From Candidatus Methylomirabilota bacterium (GTDB lineage: Bacteria > Methylomirabilota > Methylomirabilia > Rokubacteriales > CSP1-6), in assembly GCA_035650715.1 (NCBI GenBank), contig DASRHC010000004.1:85160-149159 (forward strand): a stretch of 64,000 nucleotides of DNA, in the 5' to 3' direction. A program made the translations under genes and the position numbers. Below the pieces are notes generated by a model, which saw only the letters and a list, made by a program, of their open reading frames with translations, was not told the origin of the DNA and ran no database searches. Below, in pieces: positions 10,799-53,279 of the stretch; within the stretch, counting starts at the first letter, position 1; every line of letters starts with the position of its first letter.

Positions 10799-10861
10799 GG
10801 GGTCAGGTCTTACATTCCGACATTTGACGCGTCGCGATGTCGGAATGTAAGACCTGACCCC
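10799..10861. repeat. Inverted-repeat element copy 1. Perfect 25-bp arms GGGGTCAGGTCTTACATTCCGACAT / ATGTCGGAATGTAAGACCTGACCCC with a 13-nt loop.
   Basis: Seen directly. Starts 3 nt after the CaiB-family stop and ends 13 nt before the next gene start. Confidence 0.9.
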
Positions 10862-10874
10862 ATCGGAGAGTCAC

Positions 10875-11666
10875 GTGAGAGAGAACGCGCTGAAGAAGAT
10901 CTGGGCCAAGGGCGAGGCGGTGGTGAACGGCTGGCTGTCGATCCCGAGCGGCTTCTCGGCCGAGGTGATGGCGCACCAGGGCTTCGACTCGCTCACCATC
11001 GACATGCAGCACGGCGTGGTCGACTACCAGGTGGCGGTGAGCATGCTCCAGGGCATCTCCACCCTCGCGGTGGTGCCGCTGGCCCGCGTGCCGTGGAACG
11101 ATCCGGCGCGCCTCATGAAGATCCTCGACGCGGGCGCGTACGGGGTCATCTGCCCCATGATCAACACCGCCAAGGAGGCGGAGGCGATGGTGCGGGCCTG
11201 CAAGTACCCACCGCGCGGCTATCGCAGCTGGGGGCCGGTGCGCGCCTCGCTCTACGCGGGCTCCGACTACGGCGACCACGCCAACGTGGAGACCATCGTG
11301 ATGCCGATGATCGAGACCGCGGAGGCGCTCAAGAATCTGGACGAGATCCTGAGCGTGGACGGCGTGGACGCCATCTACGTGGGCCCGTCCGACCTGAGCC
11401 TGGCCCTGGGCCTCAAGCCGCGCCTGGACCAGACCGATCCCCCGGTGGTGGAGGCCCAGCGGAAGATCGCGGCGGCGTGCCAGCGGCACAACGTGGTGGC
11501 GGGCATCCACAACGCCACCGCGACCTACGCCCTCAAGATGATCGCGGAGGGCTACCAGTTCGTGACCCTCGCGAGCGACAGCCGGCACATGGCGGCCAAG
11601 GCCGCCGAGGAGGTCGGCATCGTGCGCAAGACCGGCACCAAGACGGGCAGGCTCCCGGCCTACTAG
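10875..11666 (+). CDS. HpcH/HpaI-family class II aldolase (2-keto-3-deoxy-sugar-acid aldolase-like)
   Basis: 263 aa starting GTG with a GGAGAG RBS. Has DSLTIDMQHG and MIETAEAL. Confidence 0.85.
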   Translation: MRENALKKIWAKGEAVVNGWLSIPSGFSAEVMAHQGFDSLTIDMQHGVVDYQVAVSMLQGISTLAVVPLARVPWNDPARLMKILDAGAYGVICPMINTAKEAEAMVRACKYPPRGYRSWGPVRASLYAGSDYGDHANVETIVMPMIETAEALKNLDEILSVDGVDAIYVGPSDLSLALGLKPRLDQTDPPVVEAQRKIAAACQRHNVVAGIHNATATYALKMIAEGYQFVTLASDSRHMAAKAAEEVGIVRKTGTKTGRLPAY

Positions 11667-12289
11667 TGCCGGCGCTCCTCGACGACGCGCTGCTGGAGCG
11701 GGCGCGCGCCCACCTGGGGGCCTTCGAGCGCGTGCCCCTGCCCGACGACGGGCGGCGGCGCGCCGCGGTGGCCCAGGTGCTGGTGGCCGACGACGACGGC
11801 CGCGCGTGCTTCCTCATCACCCGGCGCGCTGCCACCCTGCGCAACCACACCGGCCAGTGGGCCCTGCCCGGCGGCCGCATCGACACCGGCGAGACCGCGG
11901 AGGACGCGGCGCTGCGGGAGCTGCGCGAGGAGGTCGGCCTCACCCTGGAGGCGGGCGCGGTGCTGGGGCTGCTCGACGACTACGGCACGCGCTCCGGCTA
12001 CATCATCACGCCGGTGGTGGTGTGGGGCGGCGCGGTGGGCGCGCTGGTGCCGAACCCGGCCGAGGTGGCCAGGGTCTTCCGGGTGCCCCTCGACGATCTC
12101 GAGGGCCCGGACGTGCCCCGGCTCGTCTCGATCCCGGAGTCGGATCGCCCGGTCATCCAGCTCCCGCTGCTCGGCACGCTGATCCACGCGCCGACCGCGG
12201 CGGTCGTCTACCAGATGCGCGAGGTCGTCGTCCACGGACGGCCCACGCGCGTGAGTCACTTCGAGCAGCCGGTGTGGGCCTGGCGGTGA
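11666..12289 (+). CDS. NUDIX hydrolase, CoA pyrophosphatase-like
   Basis: GTG start overlaps the aldolase stop (TAGTG), in frame with ORF 10190..12289. Nudix box GGRIDTGETAEDAALRELREEVGL. Confidence 0.75.
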   Translation: MPALLDDALLERARAHLGAFERVPLPDDGRRRAAVAQVLVADDDGRACFLITRRAATLRNHTGQWALPGGRIDTGETAEDAALRELREEVGLTLEAGAVLGLLDDYGTRSGYIITPVVVWGGAVGALVPNPAEVARVFRVPLDDLEGPDVPRLVSIPESDRPVIQLPLLGTLIHAPTAAVVYQMREVVVHGRPTRVSHFEQPVWAWR

Positions 12290-12318
12290 GCGCCGGGCGT
12301 CCCGGGCGGAGGAGCGGC

Positions 12319-13107
12319 ATGGGCGTTCTCGACGGGCAGGTCGCGATCATGACGGGCGGCGGCAGCGGCATCGGCCGCGCGGCGGCGCTGATGCTGGCCG
12401 CCGAGGGCGCGCAGGTGGTGGTGGCGGGCCGGCGCAAGGCGCCGATCGAGGCGGTCGCGGCCGAGATCGCCCGCGCGGGCGGCCGCGGGATCGCGCGCGT
12501 GTGCGACGTGGAGAAGCCCGCGGAGGCGCGCGGCCTCGCGGAGTGGACCATCGGCCAGTGCGGCCGCGTCGACATCCTGGTCAACAACGCGGGGCACTCG
12601 AGCCGGGCCCGCAACATCCGCTGGGTCGGCCAGGAGGAGTGGGACAGCGTGCTCGCGGTGAACCTGACCGGGGTCTACGCGCTCACCCAGGCGGTGCTGC
12701 CCGGCATGATCGAGCGCGGGGGCGGCACCATCATCACGGTCAGCTCGCTGGCCGCGCTCAAGCCCGGGCTGATCGGCGGGGCGCCCTATGGCGCCGCCAA
12801 GGCCGGGGTGCGGAACCTGATGGGCCACGTCCACACCGTGCTGCGCGAGAAGGGCATCCGCGCGACCACCATCATGCCCGCCGAGGTCGACACCCCGATC
12901 CTCGACAACCGCCCCCTGCGGCCCGACGCGCAGGCCCGGGCGACGATGATGCAGGCCGAGGACGTGGCGCGCGCCATCCTGCTCTGCGCCACCCTGCCCC
13001 CGCGCACCGTGATCGAGGAGATCGTGATGAGCCCGACGATCCTGCGGGATCAGTCCGCGGACATCCGGATCGCGCGCGACGAGGGGGCGCCGCCGGGGGC
13101 GCGGTAG
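12319..13107 (+). CDS. SDR-family oxidoreductase
   Basis: Starts MGVLDGQVAIMTGGGSGIGRA inside ORF 11806..13107. Has NNAG, YGAAKAG and GIR motifs. A GGAG lies upstream. Confidence 0.85.
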   Translation: MGVLDGQVAIMTGGGSGIGRAAALMLAAEGAQVVVAGRRKAPIEAVAAEIARAGGRGIARVCDVEKPAEARGLAEWTIGQCGRVDILVNNAGHSSRARNIRWVGQEEWDSVLAVNLTGVYALTQAVLPGMIERGGGTIITVSSLAALKPGLIGGAPYGAAKAGVRNLMGHVHTVLREKGIRATTIMPAEVDTPILDNRPLRPDAQARATMMQAEDVARAILLCATLPPRTVIEEIVMSPTILRDQSADIRIARDEGAPPGAR

Positions 13108-13138
13108 GCCGAGACCGCGGAGGTGCCCGGGGCCGGAT

Positions 13139-13606
13139 TCACCGGCCCAGCGAGGCCTGCTGCACGCGGTTGCGGAAGCCGATGGGGTCGCGCACGCGGC
13201 GGAAGACCTCGCGGGCCCCGCCGGTGCCGGTCACGATCAAATCGCCGAAGCCCAGCATGCGGCCGATCAGCCCTTGCTGGATGCCGATGCTCTCCACCTT
13301 GGAGAGGAGCAGCTCGGTGGTGTAGCGCGAGATGAGCCCCACCTTGAGGATGAGGCGGCTGGTGGTCACCGCGAACTCGGAGGTCATCAGCTCCACGTAG
13401 TGCACCAGCGCCCAGGCGGCCCCGATCACCACGACGCCCGCGCCGATCAGCCAGATCCAGGGCGGATCCTGCACCGGCCGCAGCACGACGGCGAGCGCGA
13501 TCCCCGCGATGATCACCAGGGCCGGCCGCAGGAAGAGGATCCAGTGCAGCCGCGTCTTGTACACGACGCGCTCCCCCTCCAGCAGGTGCCGCTCCACGTA
13601 CCCCAC
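13139..13606 (-). CDS. Membrane protein with bacterial PH domain (DUF304 / YdbS-like)
   Basis: 155 aa with two TM helices followed by a PH-like region. Confidence 0.7.
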   Translation of the reverse strand: MGYVERHLLEGERVVYKTRLHWILFLRPALVIIAGIALAVVLRPVQDPPWIWLIGAGVVVIGAAWALVHYVELMTSEFAVTTSRLILKVGLISRYTTELLLSKVESIGIQQGLIGRMLGFGDLIVTGTGGAREVFRRVRDPIGFRNRVQQASLGR

Positions 13607-13622
13607 GCGCCCAGCCTAGCGC

Positions 13623-13706
13623 GGGGTCAGGTCTTACATTCCTACATTTTCGGCGGCGGGGCGGCGGGGGGCGGAAGAGAAATGTCGGAATGTAAGACCT
13701 GACCCC
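13623..13706. repeat. Inverted-repeat element copy 2. 25-bp arms (one mismatch in the left arm) with a 34-nt GC-rich loop.
   Basis: Seen directly. Overlaps the 3' end and stop codon of the gamma-CA-like gene and lies 17 nt upstream of the PH-domain gene start. Confidence 0.9.
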
Positions 13707-14208
13707 GGTAGTCGCGGTGCCAGAGGTCGAGGTACTCGGTGGCGTTGCGGGCGATGTCGTCGAGCTCCTCCTGGCTCATCTTGCGCACCGGCTTGGCCGG
13801 GACGCCCATGACCAGCCAGCCCGACGGCACCACCTTGCCCGGCGGGACCACCGCGCCCGCCCCCACCTGCGCCCACTCCTCGATCACCGCGCCGGTGAGC
13901 ACCACCGCCCCGATGCCGATGCGCACGTTGTCCATCACCCGGCAGGCGTGCACCACCGCCCGGTGGCCGATCGTCACGTTGGCCCCCACGATGCACGGGA
14001 ACTGGGGCGTCACGTGCAGCACCGAGTTGTCCTGGACGTTGGAGTTGCGACCGAGCACGACGTAGTTGTCCTGGTCGCCCCGCAGCACGGTGAAGGGCCA
14101 CACGCTCGCGCCCGCCTCGATCGTCACGTCGCCGATGACCTGCGCGGCCGGATCCACGTAGGCCTCCGGGTGCACCCGCGGCGTCCGCCCCGGCACCGAG
14201 CGGATCAC
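13642..14208 (-). CDS. Gamma-carbonic-anhydrase-like hexapeptide-repeat protein (PaaY/CaiE family)
   Basis: GTG start overlaps the crotonase stop (GTGA). Reads MIRSVPGRTPRVHPEAYVDPAAQVIGDVTIEAGASVWPFTVLRGD... The C-terminal tail [20 protein letters not shown] and the stop are encoded by the inverted-repeat element. Confidence 0.8.
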   Translation of the reverse strand: MIRSVPGRTPRVHPEAYVDPAAQVIGDVTIEAGASVWPFTVLRGDQDNYVVLGRNSNVQDNSVLHVTPQFPCIVGANVTIGHRAVVHACRVMDNVRIGIGAVVLTGAVIEEWAQVGAGAVVPPGKVVPSGWLVMGVPAKPVRKMSQEELDDIARNATEYLDLWHRDYRGQVLHSDISLPPPAAPPPKM

Positions 14209-14987
14209 CGGCCGCTCCAGCGCGCGGGGCGCTTGTCGAGAAAGGCCCGCACGCCCTCGTGGAAGTCGGCGCTGGTGTAGGTCCACGCGATCAGATCCTC
14301 GTCCTCGGGGAGCGCCCGGCTGCGCGCCAGGCGCCGGATGGCCTCCTTGGTGACCGCCAGCGTGATCGGCGCGTGCTCGGCGATCTGCCGGGCCAGCGCG
14401 GCCACCCGCGCCGCGATGTCCTCCGGCGGCACGATCTCGTGGACGTAGCCGGCCGCGCGCGCCTCCTCGGCCCCGAGCAGACGCGCGGTGAAGAGCAGCT
14501 CGGTGACCCGCGAGGGCCCGAACACGTCCACCAGGCGCGCGTAGGCCGCCATCGACAGGCAGTTGCCGAGCGTGCGGGCGATGGGCGCGCCGAACCGGGC
14601 GTCGGGCGTGGCCACGCGGATGTCGCACGCGGTCGCGATCCGGAAGCCGCCGCCCACCGCGACGCCCTCGATCTGGGCGATCACCGGCTTGTTCACCGAC
14701 TCGAGCCGCGCGATGCGGCGATCGCCGTCGCGCTCGTAGGCGATGCCGTCCTCGGCGCGCTCGAACACCTGGAACTGGCTGATGTCCGTGCCGGCCACGA
14801 ACGCCTTGCCGCCCGCCCCGCGGAGCACCAGCACCCGGACGGAGTCGTCGGCGTCGACCTCCTCGCACACCTGGTAGAGCCGGTCGTACATCGCCCACGT
14901 CATGGCGTTGCGCGCGGCGGGCCGGTTGAAGGTGAGCGTCATCACCGGCCCCTCGCGGGTGACCAGCGTCTCGTCTTGCGTCGGCAC
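14205..14987 (-). CDS. Enoyl-CoA hydratase/isomerase family protein (crotonase)
   Basis: GTG start with a GGGAGG RBS 8 nt upstream. Reads MPTQDETLVTREGPVMTLTFNRP, with AFVAGTDISQF and VAVGGG. Confidence 0.85.
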   Translation of the reverse strand: MPTQDETLVTREGPVMTLTFNRPAARNAMTWAMYDRLYQVCEEVDADDSVRVLVLRGAGGKAFVAGTDISQFQVFERAEDGIAYERDGDRRIARLESVNKPVIAQIEGVAVGGGFRIATACDIRVATPDARFGAPIARTLGNCLSMAAYARLVDVFGPSRVTELLFTARLLGAEEARAAGYVHEIVPPEDIAARVAALARQIAEHAPITLAVTKEAIRRLARSRALPEDEDLIAWTYTSADFHEGVRAFLDKRPARWSGR

Positions 14988-15087
14988 GGCGTGCGCCTCC
15001 CGTTGCTCGTGATGGTGCCGCGTGGGTCGCCGCATCGTATCACCTTCCCGCGCACGGCCGCCCCGACCCTCGCGTTAGCATGGACGG

Positions 15088-15789
15088 ATGACGCGCCCCG
15101 CCGGCCTCGTGCTCGACTACGGCAACGTGCTGACCCTCCCGCAGGACGAGACCTTCATGGCGGATGCGGCGCGCCGCCTCGGCGTCGAGCCCGACGCCTT
15201 CCGCGAGGCGTACTGGCGCCACCGTCACGCCTACGACGCCGGTCTGCCCGCGGCCGCGTACTGGCGCCGCGTGGTGGCGGACGTGCGGCCGGGCGGCCCG
15301 ACGCTCGACGATCCCGCGTGGCTGATCGCGGCCGACGTCGCCTCGTGGACGATCTACCACGAGGCGGTCTGGAGCGTCGCGGCCGCGTTCCGGGCCGCGG
15401 GCGGGCGCACCGCGCTGCTCTCCAACAGCGGGCCCGAGGTCATGGCGCGCGTGCGCGCGGAGCGCGACCTCGAGGCGCGCTTCGACGCGGTGATCGTCTC
15501 CTGCGAGGTGGGGCTGGCCAAGCCCGACCCCGCCATCTTCCATCTGTGCCTGGACCGGCTGCGGCTGCCCGCCCGCTCGGTGCTCTTCGTGGACGACCGC
15601 GCCGACAACATCGAGGGTGCCGCGCGCGTCGGGCTGCGGACCCTGCACTTCGACGCGCCGGGCGCGGTGGACCGACTGCGCGCGGCGCTCGGCCAGGCTG
15701 CCGGTCGGTCGCACGTTCCCCAGGCTGGGAAATCCCCTTCTGGCCATGGGCCCGGCACTTCAGGCGCAACCTTTGCGGGCGACCCCTAA
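15088..15789 (+). CDS. HAD-superfamily hydrolase
   Basis: 233 aa: LVLDYGNVL, LLSNSGPE, LFVDDRADNIEGA. Confidence 0.8.
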   Translation: MTRPAGLVLDYGNVLTLPQDETFMADAARRLGVEPDAFREAYWRHRHAYDAGLPAAAYWRRVVADVRPGGPTLDDPAWLIAADVASWTIYHEAVWSVAAAFRAAGGRTALLSNSGPEVMARVRAERDLEARFDAVIVSCEVGLAKPDPAIFHLCLDRLRLPARSVLFVDDRADNIEGAARVGLRTLHFDAPGAVDRLRAALGQAAGRSHVPQAGKSPSGHGPGTSGATFAGDP

Positions 15790-15897
15790 GTGGCCGTCGG
15801 GCAATCGATGATTGCCTGGTCCGGCTCTTGCGTTTCAGGCCCGCCATCGTGGCAGGCGCGGCCGCGAGCCACGCCACTTCCGACGGGGGGACGACGC

Positions 15898-16377
15898 ATG
15901 AGGCGATGGGGCATGGTGCTGGTGGTCGGCGGCGCGCTGGCGCTCCTGGCCGGGCCGGCGGCGGCGCAGTGGCGGTACACGGACGACGAGGGGAAGAGCC
16001 GCGTCACCCAGTACAAGATCGACATCCCGAAGCACCTGCGCGACGGCGCGGAGTGGATCGGCCCGGTCGGGCCGGGCAAGCCGGGGCTCAGCGCGGAGCA
16101 GAAGCAGAAGGCCCAGCGCGAGGAAGCCAACCGCCGTCTCATCGCCGCGGAGGCCGGACTGATCGGCTACCGCCACCTCCCGCCTCCGGCGCGGCCCGCT
16201 CCGGACCGCGGGGGCCCCGACCGGATCCTGGCCACCATGTGCATCGCCGGCCAGCAGCGGGTGATGACCTCGCCCGGTAGCTGGAAGGTGGTCGGATCCT
16301 GCTCCTCCGACTTCTCGACGGGCTACGTGGGGGGCTACCCGACCCTCGGGGGCTGGGGCGGCTACCCCACGCACTGA
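15898..16377 (+). CDS. Secreted hypothetical protein (DUF4124-like)
   Basis: Signal peptide MRRWGMVLVVGGALALLAGPAAAQ followed by WRYTDDEGKSRVTQY. Confidence 0.55.
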   Translation: MRRWGMVLVVGGALALLAGPAAAQWRYTDDEGKSRVTQYKIDIPKHLRDGAEWIGPVGPGKPGLSAEQKQKAQREEANRRLIAAEAGLIGYRHLPPPARPAPDRGGPDRILATMCIAGQQRVMTSPGSWKVVGSCSSDFSTGYVGGYPTLGGWGGYPTH

Positions 16378-16413
16378 TCGGCACCCGGACGCGGGGCGGT
16401 CCGACGCGATCGG

Positions 16414-16968
16414 CTAGATCTTGAAGCGCGCGCGGATCTCGTCGGGCCGCTCCGAGTAGGGCGGGATCGCCTCCCGGGGATCGAACGCGATTTCCACCAC
16501 GATCGCGGCGGGACTTCCCGCCCGGCGGGCGGCGGCGAGGGCCTCGCGCAGCGCGGCCGGATCGCCCACGGTGGCGACGTGGCGCAGGCCCGCAGCCCGC
16601 GCCAGCCCGGGCCAGTCCACCGCCACCGGCGGCAGCGCCTGCCCGCCGGAGGACTCGTAGCGCCCGTTCACCCAGAGCAGCACCGTGAGGTTCGGCGGGG
16701 CCGCCGCGGCCACGGTGGCGAGCACGTTGGGGCTCATCAACAGGGAGCCGTCGCCCTCCAGGGCCACCACGTGGCGGTCCGGCCGCTGGAGCGCCACGCC
16801 CAGCGCCAGGGGAATCGCCGCGCCCATCGAGTCGCAGAGCGCGAACACCGGGCACGGCACCGTCATGTGCGGCAGGTAGCGCGCGTTCGCGCCGAGGCAG
16901 GAGATCAGCACGTCGGTCGGCGTCAGCGTCGCGACCAGCGCGTCCAGCAGCGGCTTGCGTGGCGTCAC
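16414..16968 (-). CDS. Sulfopyruvate/phosphonopyruvate-decarboxylase-like TPP enzyme, beta subunit (PP-binding domain)
   Basis: GTG start overlaps the alpha-subunit stop (GTGA). Has the TPP-binding motif ALEGDGSLLMSPNVLATVA. Confidence 0.75.
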   Translation of the reverse strand: MTPRKPLLDALVATLTPTDVLISCLGANARYLPHMTVPCPVFALCDSMGAAIPLALGVALQRPDRHVVALEGDGSLLMSPNVLATVAAAAPPNLTVLLWVNGRYESSGGQALPPVAVDWPGLARAAGLRHVATVGDPAALREALAAARRAGSPAAIVVEIAFDPREAIPPYSERPDEIRARFKI

Positions 16969-17455
16969 GCGAGATCCTCCCCGCTGATCAGCAGCACGAA
17001 GGGCCCGCGCGATTCCACGCAGAACTCGACGCCCTGCTTCACCTGCCCCGCCAGATCGCCGCGCCGGTCGGCGTGGGCGTGGGGCAGCCGCCAGGCCCGC
17101 AGCGTCTCCTCGGTGACCCGCCCCTTGGGGGCGTGGTAGTAGACCGGGTCGCGATGGTCCCCGCGCAGCGACACGATGAAGAAGCACGGCAGCCGGTAGA
17201 GCTCGACCAGGCCCGCCAGCACCCCGCCGCAGTTGAGCAGGCCCGCGTTCTGGATCAGCACCGCGCCGCGCCCGCCGGCCAGGTTGGCGCCGCACGCGAC
17301 CGCGACCGCCTCCTCCTCCCGGGCCACGTCGACCGCCCGCAGCCGGGGCGAGCGCCGCACACCCTCCATCAGCCGGCCGATCCAGGTGTCCGGCACCGAG
17401 GCCACCAGCGTGACCCCGGCGGCCTCGAGCCCGGACACGATCTGCTCCACGCCCG

Positions 17456-17459
<4 letters not shown>
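16965..17459 (-). CDS. Sulfopyruvate/phosphonopyruvate-decarboxylase-like TPP enzyme, alpha subunit (Pyr domain)
   Basis: 164 aa, MTGVEQIVSGLEAAGVTLVASVPDTWIGRLMEG. Pairs with the beta subunit, ComD/ComE-like. Confidence 0.75.
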
Positions 17460-18535
<1,076 letters not shown>

Positions 18536-18562
18536 CAGCTCACCGCCCGCCGCTCGAGCCCA

Positions 18563-20133: not shown

Positions 20134-20146
20134 CGGCCGGAGCGCG

Positions 20147-21172: not shown

Positions 21173-21182
21173 GGCGTGTCTC

Positions 21183-40308: not shown

Positions 40309-40350
40309 GCTAGCCTCGGCCCGCGGGCAGGTGCACGACCGCCCGGCACC

Positions 40351-41978: not shown

Positions 41979-41989
41979 GGCCGCGGCGC

Positions 41990-44050: not shown

Positions 44051-44076
44051 CGCGTCACACCATACCCGAATCCGCC

Positions 44077-44970
44077 ATGGCGGTAAAGGTTGCGGGACGC
44101 TATGGTGGACGCGTGATCGCGACGGCAAGACGGCGGCTCGCGCGGGGCGGCGCACTCGCGCTCGCCGGCCTGGCGGTCCTCGTCGGCGGCACGGCGACGG
44201 GGCCGCGCGCGGCGCGCGCCGACGGGATCATGCTGATCGAGGCCGGCGCGTTCTGGATGGGCAGCGACACCGACTCGCCCGACGAGGCGCCGCTCCACCG
44301 CGTGTACGTGCGCGACTTCTGGCTCGACCGCCACAAGGTCACCAACCGCGAGTACGCGCGGTTCCTGGAGGCGCGCGGGCTCCGGAGCGCCGAGGGCCTG
44401 CCCTACCATGACCTCGACGACCCGGACGCGCGGATCGTCCGCTCCGGTCCCGGCTTCGCGGCCCGGCCGGGCTTCGAGGACCACCCCGCGGTCGAGGTCA
44501 CCTGGGTCGGCGCCCGGGACTACTGCCTCTGGCGCGGCCGGCGCCTGCCCACCGAGGCCGAGTGGGAGAAGGCGGCCCGCGGCGCGGACCGCCGCCGCTA
44601 CCCGTGGGGGGACGAGCCGCCGACCGACGATCGTGCGGTGGTGGGCCGCCCGTACGGCGCGACCGATCGCGGCGACCGGCGGCCGGCCGGGGCGGGCCCG
44701 GGCGGCGTCCAGGACCTGCTCGGCAACCTCCGCGAGTGGACGTCCTCCGCCTACCGGCCCTACCCGTACCGCGCCGACGACGGCCGCGAGAGCGCGCCGC
44801 TCGAGGCCGGCCGGGTCGTCCGGGGCGCGAGCCACGACGATCCGCTCGACGCGCTGCGCGTGACGATCCGCCGGCTGTCCTCGTATGATGAGGGCCGTGG
44901 CGGGCTGGCTCACGGCCACCACCACACCGGCTTTCGCTGTGCCACCTCGGAGGACCTCGGAGGACGATGA
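44077..44970 (+). CDS. Formylglycine-generating enzyme (SUMF1/FGE-sulfatase) family protein. The start is uncertain and is possibly the GTG at ~44113.
   Basis: Tat-like signal RRRLARGGALALAGLAVLVGG, an FGE-like WMGSD motif, and RGGSWxx-like C-terminal motifs. Confidence 0.75.
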   Translation: MAVKVAGRYGGRVIATARRRLARGGALALAGLAVLVGGTATGPRAARADGIMLIEAGAFWMGSDTDSPDEAPLHRVYVRDFWLDRHKVTNREYARFLEARGLRSAEGLPYHDLDDPDARIVRSGPGFAARPGFEDHPAVEVTWVGARDYCLWRGRRLPTEAEWEKAARGADRRRYPWGDEPPTDDRAVVGRPYGATDRGDRRPAGAGPGGVQDLLGNLREWTSSAYRPYPYRADDGRESAPLEAGRVVRGASHDDPLDALRVTIRRLSSYDEGRGGLAHGHHHTGFRCATSEDLGGR

Positions 44971-44974
44971 CGCC

Positions 44975-46600
44975 ATGAAGGGCCTGATGATGGACTACCC
45001 CCTCACCCTCACCCAGTTCTTCGAGCGCACGCGCCGGCTCTTCCATCGGAAGACCCTGGCCACCCGCGTGCCCGGGATGGGGCTGCAGCGCTACACCTAC
45101 GCGGACTACGCCGACCGGGTGTGCCGCCTGGCCGGCGCGCTGCGCGGACTGGGCCTGCAGAAGAGCGCGCGGGTGGGCACCTTCGCCTGGAACTCGCACC
45201 GCCACATGGAGGTGTACATGGCGGCGCCGCTCATGGGCCTGGTGCTCCACACCGTGAACATCCGCCTCTCCGCCCAGGACATCACCTACATCGTCAACCA
45301 CGCGGGCGACGAGGTGCTGATCGTCGACGCGAGCCTCTGGCACCTCCTGCAGCCGATCCGGAAGGACCTCACCACCGTCAAGCACGTGATCGTGATGAGG
45401 GACACCCCCGATGCGGCGGTGCCGCCGGGGGCGCTCGACTACGAGCAGCTCGTGATGGGCACCGAGCCGGTGACCGAGTGGCCGCGCCTCGAGGAGACCG
45501 ACGCGGCCGGCATCTGCTACACCTCCGGCACCACCGGGCATCCGAAGGGCGTGGTCTACAGCCACCGCGCCATCTACCTCCACTGCTTCGCCTCGTCCAC
45601 CGTCGACGTGATGGGCATCTGCGAGCGCGACGTGATCCTGCACGTCGTGCCCATGTTCCACGCCAACGCGTGGTGCGTGCCCTTCGCGGGGGTGATGAAC
45701 GGCTCCACCCAGATCTTCGGCGGGCCCAATCCCCAGCCGCGGGACATCGTGGAGATCGTCCACAACGAGAAGGTGACGGTGGTGGGCGCGGTGCCGACGG
45801 TGTGGATCGCCATCCAGGCCATCCTCGAGAAGGAGCCGCACTGGGACATCTCCTCGATCCGCTGCATTCCCATCGGCGGATCGGCGGCCCCGCGCACCCT
45901 CATCGAGCAGTTCGACAAGAAGTACGGGGCCTACATGCTCCACGCGTGGGGCATGACCGAGATGACCCCGCTCGGCACCGTCTGCCGCCCGCGCTCCTAC
46001 ATGGACGCCCTCTCGGAGGACGAGCGCTACGCGGTGCGGGCCAAGCAGGGCGCGCCGGTCGCCGGCGTGGACATGCGGATCGTCGACGACGCGGGCCACG
46101 TGCTGCCGTGGGACGGCAAGAGCGCGGGCGAGATCCAGGTGCGCGGGCCGTGGATCACCAGCGGCTACTACAACAACCCCCAGGGCGCCGACCAGTTCAC
46201 GCCCGACGGCTGGTTCCGCACCGGCGACGTGGCGACCATGGATCCCGACGGCTACATCCAGATCACCGACCGCACCAAGGACCTCATCAAGTCGGGCGGC
46301 GAGTGGATCTCGAGCGTGGACATGGAGACCACCATCATGGGCCACCCCAAGGTGCTGGAGGCGGCGGTGATCGCGGTGCCGCACGAGCGCTGGGTGGAGC
46401 GGCCGCTCGCCTGCGTCGTGCCCAAGCCGGAGTTCAAGGCGACGCTGACCGCGGAGGAGATCTACGAGTACCTGAAGCCCCGCGTGGCCAAGTGGTGGCT
46501 CCCCGACGGCGTGGTCTTCATCGACGCGGTGCCCAAGACCAGCGTCGGCAAGTTCGACAAGAAGGTCCTCCGCGACCGCTTCAAGACCTGGAAGCCGTAG
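44975..46600 (+). CDS. Long-chain/medium-chain fatty acid-CoA ligase (AMP-dependent synthetase)
   Basis: Starts [19 protein letters not shown] inside ORF 44885..46600. Has [12 protein letters not shown] and GWFRTGD. Confidence 0.9.
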
Positions 46601-46601
46601 G

Positions 46602-46688
46602 GGGGTCAGGTCTTACATTCCGACATTTTTCCCGCTGGAGGCGTCACCACGCCACCCACGAAAATGTCGGAATGTAAGACCTGACCCC
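46602..46688. repeat. Inverted-repeat element copy 3. Perfect 25-bp arms with a 37-nt loop.
   Basis: Seen directly. Lies between convergent genes, 2 nt after the CoA-ligase stop and 4 nt before the M48 peptidase stop. Confidence 0.9.
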
Positions 46689-46692
46689 ATCT

Positions 46693-47787
46693 TCAGCAGC
46701 GCCGGGTGAGGGCGGGCCAGTCGGCGCCGGGGAGGAGGGGCTCGGGGGTGCCCTTCCAGGCCTGGGCCATCGCGCGGAGCCGCGCGATGCGCTCGGCGGG
46801 CTCGGGGTGGGTCGAGAGGTACGTCAGGGGCCGGGGCGTGGGGCCTTCCTCCTGCCGGATCCGGTCGAAGAACGCGATCATCCCGGCCGGATCCACCCGG
46901 GCCGCCAGCAGCATCTTCATCCCCTCCACGTCCGCCTCGTCCTCCGCCCGGCGCGAGTAGCGCAGCTCCCCCAGCGTGCGCGCCGTCTGCAGCCCGTAGG
47001 CGAGCGGCCCGGTGACGTCGCCGGTCAGCGCCATCAGCAGGAGCCCGGTGGAGGCGTCCTGGATCACCGCGCGCGTGGCGTGGCGCCGCACGATGTGCTG
47101 CAGCTCGTGCGCCATGACGCCGGCCAGCTCCTCCGGGGTGCGCGTCTCCCGGAGCAGCGCGGTGAAGATCACCATGCGGCCCCCCGGCAGCGCGTACGCG
47201 TTCACCACCGGGTGGCTCACCACGTACACCCGGAACGTGTACGGTGAAGGCGGCGCGGCCCCGGCGAGACGCCGCACGATGGCGTCCGTCGCGGCCGCGA
47301 GCTCGGGATCGCCGCAGCGGCGCTCCGGCGGCGCGAGGTAGCCCACGGCGGAGCGGCCGACGCTCTCCTCCCACGCCACCGGCACGCGCGGGGCGAGCAG
47401 CGCGGCGAGGGCCGGGATCCCCCAGAGATAGATCCCGGCGGTGATCGCCAGCACCGCGACCGCCGCCCCGATGGTGAGGCGCAGGCGCGCGGCCCGCCGC
47501 CGCGGATCGTGGAAGCGCAGCCCCAGCTGCGGCGCCACCTCGTGCAGGCTCTCCAGGAATCCGCGCTCGGCCACCACGAGCGTCTCGGGCAGCGGGGCGC
47601 CGCGCTCGATGCGCACCTCCTCGCCCTCGTAGAAGCCCTGGGTCTGCCGCACCTCGCGGTAGGGCCAGAGCCGGGTCGCGGCGCCCACCGGGCTGATCTC
47701 GAGCCCCTCGCGCATGAGCCGGACGGTGGCGGGGCGCCGTGTCGCGGTCTGCCCGTCGAGATGGAAGCCCGGCCAGTCGGTGCGCAT
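46693..47787 (-). CDS. M48-family zinc metallopeptidase
   Basis: 364 aa with a HELQH (HExxH) motif and TM helices. Confidence 0.8.
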   Translation of the reverse strand: MRTDWPGFHLDGQTATRRPATVRLMREGLEISPVGAATRLWPYREVRQTQGFYEGEEVRIERGAPLPETLVVAERGFLESLHEVAPQLGLRFHDPRRRAARLRLTIGAAVAVLAITAGIYLWGIPALAALLAPRVPVAWEESVGRSAVGYLAPPERRCGDPELAAATDAIVRRLAGAAPPSPYTFRVYVVSHPVVNAYALPGGRMVIFTALLRETRTPEELAGVMAHELQHIVRRHATRAVIQDASTGLLLMALTGDVTGPLAYGLQTARTLGELRYSRRAEDEADVEGMKMLLAARVDPAGMIAFFDRIRQEEGPTPRPLTYLSTHPEPAERIARLRAMAQAWKGTPEPLLPGADWPALTRRC

Positions 47788-47802
47788 GGAGCGGGCGGCG
47801 GC

Positions 47803-48915
47803 TCAGGCCAGGTCGAAGCCGGAGTCGAAGAAGCCGGAGAGCCCCTCGCCGATGCTGCCCGCCTGCTGGGCCTCCTGGCGGATGCGCTCGAAGTCGAGCG
47901 GCCCCACGAGGGCCAGGTTGCGGAAGGCGAAATCGATGTTGCGCACGCGGACCCACGGCCACGCGAGGCCGATCGTCGCGATCAGCAGCAGCGCGTTCAC
48001 CAGCCACAGCTTGAGCAGGGCGAAACCGTTCACCGTGCACGCGAAGCGCGCGGTGGAGAACGACGTGTGCCGCCAGAAGTACCGCCGCTTGAAGGCGACG
48101 TACCAGATCCAGCACAGGCCCAGGGTGGGCAGCGTGAGCAGGATCGCCACCACGAAGGCACTGAAGAGATCGCGCCCGCGGCCGGTGAAGTCGAAGCGCT
48201 CGTTCCCGAAGTAGGAGTACGACACCAGGAACGCCTGCCGCGACACCAGGAAGAACGGATAGTAGAGGCCGAAGGTGACCGCGGTGAGCAGGCTGCCGAC
48301 GAGAAAGATCTTCAGCAGCTCGGCCACCCGGCCCCGGAAGGAGAACCGGATCCCGCGCCACGACGTCCGGCTCAGACGGTAGCGCCGCGCCCCCACCATG
48401 GCGATCGGGAAGAAGGCGTAGGCGAGCACCGCCACCAGCAACGCGGCCAGCCCGCGCACCGCGGGCGGCACGTCCAGCACGTCACGCACCGCCTGCAGGA
48501 TGAGGATCGGCACGCCGAAGACCAGCACGGCCTTGATGGTCCCCAGCAGCAGCTCGCCCGCGGTGCCGTGATAGGCGAAGCGGTCGCCCTCGAACTCGCT
48601 CTGGCTCGCGAGGTAGGCGCGCACCCGCGTCTTGGCCCAGAAGTAGTAAATGCCGACGGTGACGATCGTCAGCAGGACGTTCACGACGTGGATGCCGAAC
48701 AGGGTGCCGCCCCGCCCGTGGAAGACCGGACGCCGCACGGCGGAGGCCCGGGAGGGCTCGGGGCCGGGCGTCGAGCCGCCCGCGGCGGTCGGGAGCGGCG
48801 GCTGCGCGGGAGGCGGCGGCGGGGGCGGCAGGGACGGTCGCAGGTGCGACGGCGTGGAGGGCGGGGTCGGCTTGCGGAAGAACGACGGGCCGCCTTCAGC
48901 TCCCTCCCCGACCAT
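47803..48915 (-). CDS. DUF898-family (YjgN-like) inner-membrane protein. The real start is possibly downstream, near 48738.
   Basis: Multi-TM protein with FHGRGGTLFGIHVVNVLLTIVTVGIYYFW. The N-terminal Pro-rich extension may be an artefact. It is the usual partner of M48 peptidases. Confidence 0.7.
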   Translation of the reverse strand: MVGEGAEGGPSFFRKPTPPSTPSHLRPSLPPPPPPPAQPPLPTAAGGSTPGPEPSRASAVRRPVFHGRGGTLFGIHVVNVLLTIVTVGIYYFWAKTRVRAYLASQSEFEGDRFAYHGTAGELLLGTIKAVLVFGVPILILQAVRDVLDVPPAVRGLAALLVAVLAYAFFPIAMVGARRYRLSRTSWRGIRFSFRGRVAELLKIFLVGSLLTAVTFGLYYPFFLVSRQAFLVSYSYFGNERFDFTGRGRDLFSAFVVAILLTLPTLGLCWIWYVAFKRRYFWRHTSFSTARFACTVNGFALLKLWLVNALLLIATIGLAWPWVRVRNIDFAFRNLALVGPLDFERIRQEAQQAGSIGEGLSGFFDSGFDLA

Positions 48916-48977
48916 ACCGATCGATCATGGGCGGAACGCCCGGATCAGTCAAACTTTCGGTCGGCCGCTCGTGGAAG

Positions 48978-50117
48978 TCAGCCGCTCGCCTGGCGCGCGA
49001 ACCGCTCCAGGTGGTGCTCCGCGTCGCCGAAGGTCTGGGCGATCATGGTGAGCCGGCGGAACGTGTGGCTCACCTTGAGCTCCTCGGTCATGCCCATGCC
49101 TCCGTGCAGCTGGACGGATTCCTGGCTCACGTGGCGGCAGGCGTCGGCCACCTTGATCTTGGCCGCGGAGACCGCGCGGCGGCGCTCGTCGGGCGGCGCG
49201 GTGTCCACCTTCACGCAGGCCAGGCAGGCCATGGAGCGCGCCTGCTCGTAGCTGATCACCATGTCGACCATGCGGTGCTGCAGGGCCTGGAAGCTGCCGA
49301 TCGGCACCCCGAACTGCCGCCGGGTCTTGAGGTACTCGAGCGTCGCCTCGTTGGCGAAGCGGATGCCGCCCACCGCCTCCGCGCAGAGCAGCGCGGTGGC
49401 GTAGTCCGCCGCGTCCTCGATCAGCGGCAGCGCGCGCCCCTCCTCGCCGAGGCGCGCCTCCTCCGGGACGGTGACGCCCGAGAGCCACACGTCGGCGGCC
49501 CGGAGCTCGTCGATGGTGCGGTACTCCTTGAGGGTCACGCCGGGCGCCCCGCGCTCCACCAGGAACAGGCTGATGCCGGCCGGGTCGGTGTCGGCGCCGC
49601 CGGTGCGGGCGGACACGATCAGGGTGTCGGCGGACCGTCCGTGCAGCACCGCGCGCTTCTCGCCCTCCAGCGTGTAGCCCCCGCCGGTGCGCTTGGCCCG
49701 CAGGCCCACGTGGGCCAGGTCGTAGCGGGCGGTGCGCTCGGTGTGCGCGAACGCGACGCGATGCTTGCCCTGGATCAGGGCGGGGAGGATCCGCTTCTGC
49801 TGCGCCTGGGAGCCGGCGCGCGCCACCAGCCGACCCGCAAGCCCCACGTTCACCCAGTAGGGCTCGACCACCAGGCTCTCGCCGAGCGCCTCCATGACCA
49901 GCATCACGTCCACCGCGTTGCCGCCGAAGCCGCCGTGCTCCTCCGCGAACGGCACGCCGAGCAGCCCCATCTCGGCGAACGCGGCCCAGACCTTCTCGCT
50001 CCAGCCCGTGTCGGAGTCGACGATCCTCGCCCGCGCATCCAGCGAGTACTCGTTCGCCAGATATCGCTTGAGGCTGTCCGCCAGCAGCTGCTGCTCTTCA
50101 GTCAGATCAAAGTTCAT
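48978..50117 (-). CDS. Acyl-CoA dehydrogenase
   Basis: 379 aa, an ACAD N-/middle-/C-domain signature. Begins MNFDLTEEQQLLADSL. Confidence 0.9.
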   Translation of the reverse strand: MNFDLTEEQQLLADSLKRYLANEYSLDARARIVDSDTGWSEKVWAAFAEMGLLGVPFAEEHGGFGGNAVDVMLVMEALGESLVVEPYWVNVGLAGRLVARAGSQAQQKRILPALIQGKHRVAFAHTERTARYDLAHVGLRAKRTGGGYTLEGEKRAVLHGRSADTLIVSARTGGADTDPAGISLFLVERGAPGVTLKEYRTIDELRAADVWLSGVTVPEEARLGEEGRALPLIEDAADYATALLCAEAVGGIRFANEATLEYLKTRRQFGVPIGSFQALQHRMVDMVISYEQARSMACLACVKVDTAPPDERRRAVSAAKIKVADACRHVSQESVQLHGGMGMTEELKVSHTFRRLTMIAQTFGDAEHHLERFARQASG

Positions 50118-50149
50118 CCGATGCTCCTAGCGGGAATGTGCACTCGGCA

Positions 50150-50345
50150 CCGCGACGTGGGCGGGGTGGAGGGCGAGCGGGGCGGGGCGTGGGGGGGCCG
50201 GGTGACCCGTTCCCGCCCGGGGCGGACCGCCCGACATCCGCCCAGGTTGGGAACTCCTCCGAAGGTGGCCGCGGAGGACACGGTCGTGGTCAGAGGCCCC
50301 CCACGCCCCGCACCGCCCGCCCCCCACCCCGCCGGACCTCGCCAC
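50150..50345. repeat. Large imperfect inverted repeat: a ~42-bp G-tract-rich arm and its C-rich complement, separated by a ~95-nt loop
   Basis: Arm 1 is GTGGGCGGGGTGGAGGGCGAGCGGGGCGGGGCGTGGGGGGGCC. The reverse complement of arm 2 is CCGGCGGGGTGGGGGGCGGGCGGTGCGGGGCGTGGGGGGCC. Intergenic, between the two ACAD genes. Confidence 0.7.
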
Positions 50346-50349
50346 TGCG

Positions 50350-51531
50350 CTACAGCCCGAGCGTCGCCTTGGCGATGATGTTTCTCTGGATCTCGTTGGA
50401 GCCGGCGTAGATCGTCGCCTTGCGGAGGTTGCAGTATCTCGGCGCGAGGCGCGCGGTGAAGTGGTCGAAGTCCATGGCGTCCACGGGGCGGAAGGCCTGG
50501 GCGAGCGGGCCGGCGGCCTGCATCATCAGCTCGGTGATCGCCTGCTGGATCTCGGTGCCCTTGATCTTCAGCATCGACACGTCGGCGCCGGGTGGCCGGC
50601 CGCTGCGGCGCATCTGATCGAGGAAGCGCAGGTTGGTGATCTCGAGCGCCATCAGCTCGACCTCGACCCGGGTGAGACGGTCGCGGAAGCGCGGATCCTC
50701 GATGAGCGGGCGGCCGTCCTTCATCTGCTCCGCGGCCAGCTCCTTCAGCTTCTGCAGCTCGCGCTTGGAGGCGCCGATGCGGCCGGTGCCCATGCGCTCG
50801 TAGCCCAGCAGGTACTTGGCCACCGTCCAGCCCTTGCCCTCCTCGTGCACGAGGTTCTCGACCGGCACCTTCACGTCGTCGAAGAACACCTCGTTGACCT
50901 CCCTGCTGCCGTCCATCAGGACGATCGGCCTCACCGTGATGCCGGGCGTCTTCATGTCGATGAGCAGGAACGAGATGCCGTCCTGCCGCTTGCTCGTGTT
51001 GGGATCGGTGCGGACGAGGCAGAAGATCCAGTCCGCGTAGTGCGCGAGGGTGGTCCAGATCTTCTGGCCGGTGACCACGTAGTGGCCGTTCTCGCGCACC
51101 GCCCGCGTCTTGAGCGAGGCCAGGTCCGAGCCCGAGCCCGGCTCCGAGTAGCCCTGGCACCAGAAGTCGTCGCCGTTGTAGATGCGCGGCAGGAACCGCT
51201 TCTTCTGCTCCTCGGTGCCGAAGCGCAGCAGCACCGGCGCGCACATGCGCACCCCGAAGGGCACGATCATGGGGGTGGCCGCGTAGCCGCACTCCTCCTC
51301 GAAGATGTAGCGCTGCACCACGTTCCAGTCCGTCCCGCCCCACTCCTTCGGCCAGTCGGGGGCGACCCATCCCTTCCGGGCCAGGATCTTGTGCCAGCGC
51401 AGGAGCTCTTCCTTGCTCAGCTCCTGGTAGCTCTCCATCTTCTGGCGCAGATCCGCGGGCAGGTTCGTGCGGAGCCACCCGCGCACCTCGTCGCGGAACG
51501 CCAGCTCCTCGGGGGAGTAGTTCAGATCCAT
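50350..51531 (-). CDS. Acyl-CoA dehydrogenase
   Basis: 393 aa: MDLNYSPEELAFRDEVRGWL, and the C-terminal YAGSNEIQRNIIA. Confidence 0.9.
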   Translation of the reverse strand: MDLNYSPEELAFRDEVRGWLRTNLPADLRQKMESYQELSKEELLRWHKILARKGWVAPDWPKEWGGTDWNVVQRYIFEEECGYAATPMIVPFGVRMCAPVLLRFGTEEQKKRFLPRIYNGDDFWCQGYSEPGSGSDLASLKTRAVRENGHYVVTGQKIWTTLAHYADWIFCLVRTDPNTSKRQDGISFLLIDMKTPGITVRPIVLMDGSREVNEVFFDDVKVPVENLVHEEGKGWTVAKYLLGYERMGTGRIGASKRELQKLKELAAEQMKDGRPLIEDPRFRDRLTRVEVELMALEITNLRFLDQMRRSGRPPGADVSMLKIKGTEIQQAITELMMQAAGPLAQAFRPVDAMDFDHFTARLAPRYCNLRKATIYAGSNEIQRNIIAKATLGL

Positions 51532-51576
51532 CGTCGGGCTCCTTTGAGCAGGATGGCCTCGGGGCCGGGGGCCATG

Positions 51577-52611
51577 CTATCCCAGCGCGCGGATGAGGTC
51601 CAGCAAGCGGCCCAGGGTGGCCAGGCGCGCGGCGAGCCCCTCCCCCGCCGGCTCGACCCGGAGGGTCGTGATGCCGGCGCGGCGATAGGTCTCGAGGCGG
51701 GCGCGGACCATGGCCTCGGTGCCCAGGAGGTTGGTCTTGAGCACGAGCTCGTCCGGGACCCGGGCCGCGGCCTCCTCGCGCTTGCCGGCCAGCCAGAGCC
51801 GCTGCACCTCGATGGCGGCGTCCTCGTAGCCGGCCCGCCGGAAGGCGTCGTTGTAGAAGTTGTGCTGGCGGGAGCCCATGGCCCCGAGGGTGAAGGCGAG
51901 GCCGGGCTTGCGGGCGGGCAGGAGGCGCTCCACGTCGTCGGAGAAGGCCACGAAGCCGCCGGCCTGCAGGTCCAGGTCGGAGAGCGACCGGCCCGCCCGC
52001 GCGGCGCCGGCGGCCAGAGGGGCGGTGAAGATGCTGGCGTGGTCGGGCATGAAGGAGGTGCCGAGCCACCCGTCGGCGATCTCGCCCGTCATCTCAAGGC
52101 TACGCGGCGAAAGTGTCGCCAGATATATCGGAATACCTTGCTCTGGCCTGGCCGCAGACCGAAGGGCCTTGCCCTCGCCGCCGGGCAGCGGCAGCTGGTA
52201 GATCCGCCCCTTGTAGATGAGGTGCTGGCCGGTCACCGCCCGGCGGACGATCTCCACGATCTCTCGCATGCGCTGCACCGGCCGGTCGAACCGGATGCCG
52301 TGCCAGCCCTCGATCACCTGCGGCCCGCTCACGCCCAGCCCCAGCACGAACCGGCCGTTGGACATGGAGGCCAGGCTCATGGCGGTCATGGCGACCAGCG
52401 CGGGAGTCCGCGTGCCCGCCTGGATGATGCCCGTCCCCAGGCGAATGCGGGACGTGCGCGCGGCCATGAAGGCGAGCGGGGTGACCGCGTCGTGGCCCCA
52501 GGCTTCGGCGGACCAGACATCGTGGACCCCGAGGCGCTCCGCCTCGGTCACGTAGGCGCTCGCCTCCGCCCAGTCGGTCTGGGCCAGGCGCAGCGAGATC
52601 GAGACCCGCAT
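51577..52611 (-). CDS. LLM-class F420/flavin-dependent oxidoreductase
   Basis: Starts MRVSISLRLAQTDW inside ORF 51577..52989. Has VHDVWSAEAWGHD. Confidence 0.8.
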   Translation of the reverse strand: MRVSISLRLAQTDWAEASAYVTEAERLGVHDVWSAEAWGHDAVTPLAFMAARTSRIRLGTGIIQAGTRTPALVAMTAMSLASMSNGRFVLGLGVSGPQVIEGWHGIRFDRPVQRMREIVEIVRRAVTGQHLIYKGRIYQLPLPGGEGKALRSAARPEQGIPIYLATLSPRSLEMTGEIADGWLGTSFMPDHASIFTAPLAAGAARAGRSLSDLDLQAGGFVAFSDDVERLLPARKPGLAFTLGAMGSRQHNFYNDAFRRAGYEDAAIEVQRLWLAGKREEAAARVPDELVLKTNLLGTEAMVRARLETYRRAGITTLRVEPAGEGLAARLATLGRLLDLIRALG

Positions 52612-53153
52612 CAGGCGGGGCGGTCGGGGGGCGCCGAGGCGGGCGCGGCGAGGGCGGCGGCGATCTTCTGCAGCTGGCCGGCGTGATCCAGGTCGTGCAG
52701 GCGGGTGAAGAGCAGCGTCTCCCGCCAGGAGAGGGGCCCGAACATCGGGTGCTCGATCCGCCGGTCGGCGGCCGCCGCGGGGTCGGCGGCCAGGACGTCG
52801 GCGAAGAGCGTTTCGCGCTGGGCGTCCAGGGCGGCACACCACGCCTGGGCGGTCTGGAGCGGCGCGTCCTCGACGCGCTCCCGCGGCAGCCGGGGCTCCG
52901 CGGGGCGGCCGGCGAGGGCGGCGCGGATGCCACCGCCGAAGTAGCGGTCCGCCGCCAGCACGTGGGCCATCACCTCGTTGCCGCTCCACTCCCCGGGCTC
53001 GGGGCGCTCGCCGAAGCGCGCGGCCGGCACCGCCAGCGCCGCCTCGCGCAGGTCGGCCATGGCCGCCCGCACCTTGTCCACGATGGCCGTCGGCGTCAGC
53101 TTCGCGCCCTGCGCCACCAGGTAGCTCCGGATCCGCGCCAGCTCCTCGTTCAT
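52611..53153 (-). CDS. DinB_2 / DinB-superfamily (mycothiol-dependent isomerase-like) metal-binding protein
   Basis: Starts MNEELARIRSYLV inside ORF 52611..53192. His-rich C-terminus, HDLDHAGQ. Confidence 0.65.
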   Translation of the reverse strand: MNEELARIRSYLVAQGAKLTPTAIVDKVRAAMADLREAALAVPAARFGERPEPGEWSGNEVMAHVLAADRYFGGGIRAALAGRPAEPRLPRERVEDAPLQTAQAWCAALDAQRETLFADVLAADPAAAADRRIEHPMFGPLSWRETLLFTRLHDLDHAGQLQKIAAALAAPASAPPDRPA

Positions 53154-53193
53154 CGCGCCTCGGACTCTATCCCGCCCACCCGCCCCCCGCAAC

Positions 53194-53279
53194 GGGGTCA
53201 GGTCTTACATTCCGACATTGCCCAAACGCGAGACCCGACGCCATCCGCAATCAATGTCGGAATGTAAGACCTGACCCCA
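53194..53279. repeat. Inverted-repeat element copy 4. Perfect 25-bp arms with a 35-nt loop.
   Basis: Seen directly. Immediately 3' of the alpha/beta hydrolase gene stop. Confidence 0.9.

Follow-up and report, generated by a model that had tools for sequence, protein, structure and literature searches.

Hairpin repeats at gene ends in Rokubacteria are probably dimers of terminal inverted repeats from a TIRtron-type transposase system

We analyzed a 64,000-nt stretch of DNA from a Candidatus Methylomirabilota bacterium of the order Rokubacteriales (contig DASRHC010000004.1, positions 85,160 to 149,159 of the forward strand), referred to here as the window, in which an original prediction made from the sequence alone had described four long hairpins at the 3' ends of genes. 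These hairpins are very probably non-autonomous dimers of the terminal inverted repeats (TIRs) of a TIRtron system, similar in layout to REPINs, whose cognate enzyme is a Y1 HUH transposase of the RAYT type (REP-associated tyrosine transposase, REP being a repetitive extragenic palindrome) with a C-terminal helix-turn-helix (HTH) domain, i.e., a TIRYT. The hairpin family is a new and well-populated case of this known kind of element and not a new class of system.

A search of the window with the 25-mer GGGGTCAGGTCTTACATTCCGACAT, allowing up to 3 mismatches, returned eight matches that form four inverted pairs (Table 1), while 100 dinucleotide shuffles of the window gave none. This confirms the predicted set of four hairpins with shared 25-nt arms, the single mismatch over the eight arms being T for G at 13643 in copy 2. 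The distances between the 25-nt arms in copies 1 to 4 are 13, 34, 37, and 35 nt, as had been reported, and the loop sequences are unrelated. Three copies lie exactly at the predicted positions, and copy 4 ends at 53278 instead of 53279. Pairing continues inward past 25 nt to give stems of 25, 28, 28, and 27 bp; the perfect stem had been called unusually long, and stems of 25-28 bp do occur in the window, a length accounted for if the arms are, as is very probable, the terminal inverted repeats that bound a transposase unit. The arms contain 48% G+C compared to 72% for the window, in line with the low value predicted for them. The proposed folding of each copy yielded -50 to -73 kcal/mol as RNA (z = -5 to -11), and predicted DNA folding of two copies yielded -32 and -41 kcal/mol (z = -13); one arm alone hardly folds (-1.3 kcal/mol, equalled by 13 of 200 shuffles). 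No T-run was detected downstream of any of the four copies, after which the tails read CCCCATCGG, CCCCGGTAG, CCCCATCTT, and CCCCATCTA, and no terminator-like site was called at any of them. The hairpins thus differ from intrinsic terminators in having no U-tract, as the original prediction had noted. No degenerate extra copies with up to 7 errors were found in the window, no Rfam family matched anywhere in the window at gathering thresholds, and full-text literature searches for the arm sequence, and for Rokubacteria combined with REP, returned nothing.

Table 1. Hairpin copies in the window and the genes on either side of them
Feature	Position (strand)	25-nt arm pair	Full arms	Centre, or relation to the hairpin
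Hairpin copy 1	10799..10861	10799-10823 / 10837-10861	25 nt, perfect	13-nt loop TTGACGCGTCGCG
Hairpin copy 2	13622..13707	13623-13647 / 13682-13706	13622-13649 + 13680-13707, 28 nt, mismatch G13643T	30 nt between extended arms
Hairpin copy 3	46602..46688	46602-46626 / 46664-46688	46602-46629 + 46661-46688, 28 nt, perfect	31 nt between extended arms
Hairpin copy 4	53194..53278	53194-53218 / 53254-53278	53194-53220 + 53252-53278, 27 nt, perfect	31 nt between extended arms
Copy 1, left: CoA-transferase gene	9630-10796 (+)			TAG stop 2 nt before hairpin
Copy 1, right: HpcH/HpaI aldolase gene	10875-11666 (+)			GTG start 13 nt, GGAGAG ribosome-binding site 3 nt past hairpin
Copy 2, one side: bPH_2 gene	13139-13606 (-)			start of gene on this side
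Copy 2, other side: hexapeptide-transferase gene	13642-14208 (-)			
Copy 3, left: acyl-CoA synthetase gene	44885-46600 (+)			TAG stop 1 nt before hairpin
Copy 3, right: M48 peptidase gene	46693-47787 (-)			stop (TCA on + strand) 4 nt past hairpin
Copy 4, left: DinB_2 gene	52611-53153 (-)			hairpin 40 nt upstream of start
Copy 4, right: alpha/beta-hydrolase gene	53281-54045 (-)			stop (CTA on + strand) 2 nt from hairpin

The repeat is widely dispersed, as the original prediction had anticipated. At least 95 stretches in the genome collection (loci with L numbers below) contain a 21-nt core of the arm, and nearly all of these stretches belong to Rokubacteria/Methylomirabilota metagenome-assembled genomes (MAGs), about 13 in number; the core was absent from viral contigs. 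The loci and the window combined contain at least 82 arm-loop-arm hairpins (4 in the window and 78 elsewhere) and at least 31 single arms. The MFD02242 MAG, an example of a genome with a lost or frameshifted TIRYT gene, showed arms that were decayed or single only. Density was 4 copies per 64 kb in the window and about 1.1 elements in each fixed 8-kb block, which gives roughly one per 40 kb. Extrapolated from these two densities, and not counted on a complete genome, the copy number is estimated at about 100-400 per genome, so that the forecast of hundreds of copies genome-wide was of the right order.

The loop is 32-40 nt long in 40 of 62 independent loci, with minor groups at -1/0, 10-14, and 23-24 nt. 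Its ends are conserved, starting with TT(T/C)C and finishing with (G)(G/A)AA, and therefore the real repeat is 27-29 bp long. Between these ends, the loops are essentially unrelated across loci (best local score of 25, a small excess over shuffles), and a hidden conserved loop family was largely rejected on these grounds. Also rejected were an extension of the stem beyond the TTTC/GAAA ends (shuffling of the inner loop only, z = -0.21, P = 0.13) and an origin of the loops as leftovers of the transposase unit, since scores against the same genome's unit were at the null level. A CRISPR-like reading, prompted by the variable centres of about 35 nt, was dropped, as the repeats are inverted and dispersed, occur at gene ends, and belong to a transposase system. 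That the loops are unrelated is no paradox in itself: with an estimated 100-400 copies per genome and only a handful of them sampled from each, parent-offspring pairs would seldom be caught. Two loop classes do recur. The 13-nt class TTGNCGCGNYGCG, which includes copy 1 of the window, occurs at no fewer than four non-orthologous loci, and the non-orthologous elements L081 1322-1586 and L082 6220-6457 from different MAGs share an interior of about 190-215 nt at 88% identity. The latter interior is partly palindromic, and the element represents a longer non-autonomous member of the family. A nested cluster is present at L083 5372-5590, where outer arms of a variant type (described below) surround a loop-less palindrome of the main type and a complete variant-type hairpin; this arrangement suggests insertion into the centre of a pre-existing element.

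A G+C content of about 70% is common to the arm-bearing loci, and those from MAGs with labels such as Nitrosotalea or Limnocylindria are no exception. Because of this shared composition, the non-Rokubacteria labels look wrong, or the bins mixed, as far as the sequences indicate. The MAGs with doubtful labels are SMAG_U15217 'Nitrosotalea' (L010, L022, and L036), SMAG_U14396 'Limnocylindria' (L001 and L020), and SMAG_U16061 'Deferrimicrobiaceae' (L004 and L091), along with those of 'Verrucomicrobiia' (L095) and 'Eisenbacteria' (L059). Their 70% G+C contigs show synteny to Rokubacteria contigs and to the window, with a nucleotide identity of 80-90%. The sole match outside the ~70% G+C group is one perfect arm at L075 1417-1441, on a contig with 60% G+C from a MAG that bears the label Gammaproteobacteria.

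The connection of the arms to an enzyme was established at loci L091, L085, and L073, where a single gene with a 288-aa product is enclosed by two arms at a distance of about 940 bp. The domain and motif tests on this protein were run on relatives (L091 and others), rather than on the window's own genome. The protein scored 95.8 bits against NCBIfam NF047646 (REP_Tyr_transpos; cut-off of 80) and matched Pfam Y1_Tnp at 2.7e-12. A C-terminal HTH_23 domain at residues 244-284 scored 24.5 bits, just below the 24.6-bit cut-off, and PF13384 or PF13936 is precomputed on many of the homologues. Across 23 homologues, neither the HUH motif (NHYHLL) nor the tyrosine motif (RYIVLNP) varies, and public records already label close homologues as RayT or REP-associated tyrosine transposase. 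The only relative in PDB is the E. coli TnpA-REP protein (4er8), with weak similarity (E = 7e-4). Of the two kinds of cognate enzyme that the original prediction had proposed to search for, it is thus a transposase (Y1 HUH, RAYT/TIRYT) that exists, and not a tyrosine recombinase. The gene neighborhood is identical in all Rokubacteria loci examined and consists of a DEAD helicase, a hypothetical gene, a glyoxalase, the transposase, and the convergent bipA/typA gene. From these loci, the transposase appears to be single-copy and vertically inherited at a fixed syntenic locus. In L085 (4304-5166, from the MFD06298 MAG) the transposase gene is split over two frames, which could be a frameshift due to long-read sequencing error or a pseudogene.

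To follow the arms across the transposase family, 80 homologous loci were taken from metagenomes, and the 54 with enough flanking sequence were scanned for repeats. Inverted repeats starting with GGGGTCAGGTCTT bound nearly all of these 54 loci, over a range of protein identity from 85% down to 43%, and arms also bound the gene in L176-L183. The outer 13 bp of the arm are invariant over the whole protein family, whereas the inner part varies by protein clade. The inner variant GAATTACGACAT characterizes the arms around the genes of one clade, whose putative HTH recognition helix differs as well (HYATVSRVL vs. HY[IV]TVSRAL); the same variant was also found as compensated hairpins in L017, L045, L046, and L083. 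Yet another set of genes has flanking arms of a third type, GCATTAC. A distant homologue from a sediment metagenome (L141, 45% identity) has its own repeat GGGGTCAAGTCTTGCCTTTTGCC, with hairpin dimers beside the gene at 2851-2921 and 5905-5963, and therefore the dimer habit is not confined to Rokubacteria.

RAYT-like genes that have long terminal inverted repeats in place of REPs have been named TIRtrons or TIRYTs; GGGGWSAS is common to many of their repeats, some of which are scattered as families of dimers and clusters (Di Nocera et al., 2013, PMC3733652). In a later classification, TIRYTs are subclass 2.1, the longest TnpA-REP proteins, with an HTH_23, HTH_28, or Bac_DnaA_C tail and flanking repeats of the consensus GGGG[AT][CG]A[CG] (Quentin et al., 2018, PMC6006769). 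The Rokubacteria system appears to combine all of these features, to the extent that the transposase is read in relatives' genomes: a RAYT-like Y1 HUH enzyme longer than the E. coli RAYT, a C-terminal HTH_23, a gene bounded by long inverted repeats whose outer end GGGGTCAG fits GGGGWSAS, and dispersed copies of the same repeats, mostly as inverted dimers and in some cases as clusters. It differs from the published TIRtron families, which are few, 'moderately abundant' and from other phyla, e.g., Stenotrophomonas and Acidobacteria (PMC3733652; PMC6006769), in that it spans a whole candidate phylum at its estimated 100-400 copies per genome. It also differs from them in that its transposase locus is fixed and syntenic, its arm variants follow the protein clades, and its centres show a sharp preference for 32-40 nt. 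Quentin et al. reported no REP-like repeats near subclass 2.1 genes (PMC6006769). The present family thus provides a clear phylum-wide case that ties a subclass 2.1 tyrosine transposase to abundant hairpin repeats, where earlier surveys had found rare associated repeats or none, and the matches between protein clades and arm variants that it offers could be used for testing how these enzymes read DNA.

Other known systems share only part of this layout. A REPIN consists of two inverted conserved units and a less conserved spacer of a length that matters (Bertels and Rainey, 2011, PMC3116915). The Rokubacteria hairpins resemble the REPIN-RAYT pairs in being extragenic long hairpins formed by an inverted doublet with a preferred spacer length, in the single-copy, vertically inherited transposase flanked by repeats, and in the separate repeat type for each transposase. 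However, the REP unit is a short imperfect palindrome with a GTAG tag, whereas the Rokubacteria arm is non-palindromic with no fixed GTAG, the spacers are unrelated between copies and not just less conserved, and the transposase has an additional HTH. With the E. coli REP/BIME sequences they share the concentration of extragenic palindromes after genes and a relative of the enzyme, TnpA-REP being the sole solved one (PDB 4er8; PMC3479197), but the E. coli stems are about 12-14 bp long with bulges and the E. coli enzyme has 165 aa and lacks the HTH. The insertion sequences (IS) of the IS200/IS605 group have in common with them the Y1 HUH chemistry, the absence of a target duplication, and single-stranded DNA hairpins as the expected substrates; they differ in that their ends are differing subterminal hairpins rather than terminal inverted repeats, and in being multi-copy and autonomous, whereas the Rokubacteria coding unit occupies one fixed site. 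The original prediction had compared the hairpins to miniature inverted-repeat transposable elements (MITEs) or to Correia/REP-like elements. The REP-like side of this comparison holds for a dispersed gene-end hairpin with a variable centre, and the MITE/Correia side fails on the absence of a target duplication and on the enzyme type (Y1 HUH and not DDE).

The position of the hairpins relative to genes was assessed for all 82 of them. The context is convergent for 47, tandem for 28, and divergent for 3, with no called gene on one side of the remaining 4. The nearest stop is most often 1-3 nt away, and an open reading frame (ORF) enters the element in about 20 cases. Convergent spacers free of the element have a median length of 13.5 nt, and this scarcity of intergenic space accounts for part of the gene-end placement. 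Nevertheless, the elements adjoin a stop even where a spacer of 40-100 nt is free on the other side. The adjoining stop is TAG in 65% of cases vs. 36% elsewhere (P = 2e-9), at a TAG-to-element distance that varies from -1 to +7 nt, and CTAG is frequent in the flanks. The proximity to stops and the enrichment of TAG suggest either an insertion preference or a functional requirement, the two being inseparable here.

Comparison of orthologous loci, another check that the original prediction had called for, revealed sites that are filled in one species and empty in another. At the copy 1 site, L061 carries the element and L082 lacks it (TGAcaGGAGAA), the copy 2 site is occupied in L020 (23-nt loop) and in L082 (188-nt loop) and empty in L061, the copy 4 site is occupied in L084 (36-nt loop), and several further clean filled/empty pairs were found. 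A first figure of about 80% co-occupancy was discarded as inflated by the way the loci were retrieved; corrected for this bias, 5 of 15 comparisons are occupied and 10 are empty. The longest word shared by the left and right flanks averages 3.21 nt compared to 3.14 nt in re-paired controls (P = 0.24), and no target-site duplication is therefore detectable, as expected for HUH Y1 enzymes. A duplication including CTAG was likewise rejected as a general feature, a few sites (L020 and L063) having GCTAG on both sides.

These data bear on two alternatives to the TIRtron assignment. The hairpins might be classical MITEs, i.e., deletion derivatives of an IS with a DDE transposase (of the Correia/NEMIS kind or an IS630-type element targeting CTAG). 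They do share with MITEs their small size, terminal inverted repeats of 25-29 bp, a location near genes, and the capacity to fold in transcripts, and the frequent CTAG in the flanks and the enrichment of TAG stops beside the element would fit a preference of this kind. Yet MITEs use DDE transposases and generate target duplications (TA for Correia), neither of which was observed for the Rokubacteria element; the one coding unit that the arms enclose specifies a transposase of the Y1 HUH group, the loops do not descend from this unit, and the TAG-to-element distance is not fixed. A MITE origin is thus very improbable. The alternative that terminators, protein-binding palindromes, or similar local structures arose independently, never move, and are alike through selection only can draw on the extreme conservation of the arms next to free loops whose inner part is no more structured than shuffles. 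It is scarcely credible, because an identity of 25-29 nt at hundreds of unrelated loci cannot be convergence, orthologous sites are either filled or empty, and the same repeats bound a transposase gene.

On the TIRtron reading, each hairpin would consist of two of the 27-29-bp terminal inverted repeats GGGGTCAGGTCTTACATTCCGACATTTTC of the transposase unit, placed head to head around a short free centre, and the two arms would pair when the DNA is single-stranded. The transposase is expected to act in trans from its fixed locus, recognizing the foot of the hairpin through the conserved outer 13 bp, while the HTH might read the lineage-specific inner stem. Its tyrosine would then cut, and the hairpin would be moved or copied into single-stranded targets, in a manner similar to that proposed for REP/REPIN-RAYT and shown for IS200/IS605. 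The surviving copies would lie just past stops, almost no other free space being available in genomes with such short convergent spacers, probably with an additional insertion preference near TAG-type stops. In transcripts, a 27-29-bp stem would follow directly after the stop, the same in both directions, and might alter 3'-end stability, termination, or RNase III processing.

Several observations weigh against this assignment. No transposase homologue is encoded in the 64-kb window, and the presence of the gene in the window's own genome is presumed from relatives at 80-86% nucleotide identity to the window that carry it, namely L091 (from the MAG of L082) and L073 (from the MAG of L061). Binding, cleavage, and movement by this subclass of transposase are all steps that we infer from sequence. 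The link between the HTH helix and arm type involves one clade only, and shared ancestry could explain it. Whole-unit copying is directly visible only for the 13-nt and ~200-nt loop classes, most 32-40-nt loops being unrelated. Finally, at 29 sites shared between species, the arms are 98.8% identical, compared to 89% for flanking coding DNA and 63% for the loops (null 51%). These values point to arms that are constrained or homogenised in place and not merely young, which pure copying and decay does not predict.

The identity of the arms at occupied orthologous sites lends support to a different possibility, which overlaps with the TIRtron reading and differs from it solely in who benefits: the hairpins may have been domesticated, with the arms retained because the host uses them and with the transposase acting as a maintenance enzyme rather than as a spreading agent. 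Possible host functions are bidirectional termination in spite of the missing U-tract, mRNA 3'-end protection, a role as RNase III sites, and the tuning of translation termination. Liang, Rudd and Deutscher reportedly found in 2015 that translation termination in E. coli is tuned by REPs lying no more than 15 nt from the stop codon. Domestication is also favored by the stop at 1-3 nt even where free space is available on the other side, by the symmetry of the stem, which gives the two transcripts of a convergent pair an identical structure, by the housekeeping-like character of the single-copy, syntenic transposase gene, and by the lack of canonical terminators at these gene ends. On the other hand, many orthologous sites are empty in sister species with the neighboring genes apparently unaffected, the ORFs that run into the element show that the placement is not always clean, and a perfect RNA stem of 27-29 bp could be cut just as easily as it could protect. 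We consider domestication possible but the less probable account.

A more specific suggestion, which we regard as rather unlikely, is that a domesticated transposase actively keeps or re-writes the arms in place, for example by nick-initiated ectopic gene conversion confined to the arms. Four hints are consistent with it: the 98.8% arm identity, a switch between main-type and variant-type arms at orthologous sites, the occurrence of the 13-nt loop with both arm types, and the joint change of arm type and HTH helix. The switch was observed at two sites, one species having the main type and the other the variant type, L042 2828-2915 vs. L045 5169-5252 (empty in L039) and L058 6639-6701 vs. L046 1181-1243, where the 13-nt loops are mutual reverse complements. 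Both independent insertions at a hot site and in-place conversion are possible explanations for it. If true, re-writing would mean that the host maintains a set of identical 27-29-bp stems right after stops, with centres free to drift.

For the genes next to the four copies in the window, which were called with a codon model trained on the data, Pfam domains extend to the C-termini of all eight products. The original prediction that every copy begins within 0-4 nt of a stop codon holds for three of the four, whose stops at 10796, 46600/46693, and 53281 are 1-4 nt away; copy 3 occupies the whole spacer of a convergent gene pair. Copy 2 is the exception, as the gene there reads through. The 'CTAG' on its left is not the stop of any current gene. 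The hexapeptide-transferase gene has no stop of its own, about 7 nt being missing relative to L020, and is translated across the whole hairpin; the read-through tail (13642-13706) adds 21 residues and is terminated by a TAG that the arm mismatch G13643T creates. Relatives of this locus retain the TAG just outside the element. For the annotation of Rokubacteria MAGs, the family explains recurrent low-G+C palindromes at gene ends, which can break assemblies, extend ORFs (as in 13642-14208), and be mistaken for terminators.

Apart from the hairpin family, the window contains a separate G+C-rich inverted repeat at 50160-50196 / 50297-50333, further copies of which were not found among the collected arm-bearing loci. 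Its 37-nt arms are 92% complementary and lie 100 nt apart, and the repeat is located in the 232-nt spacer between the genes at 48978-50117 (-) and 50350-51531 (-).

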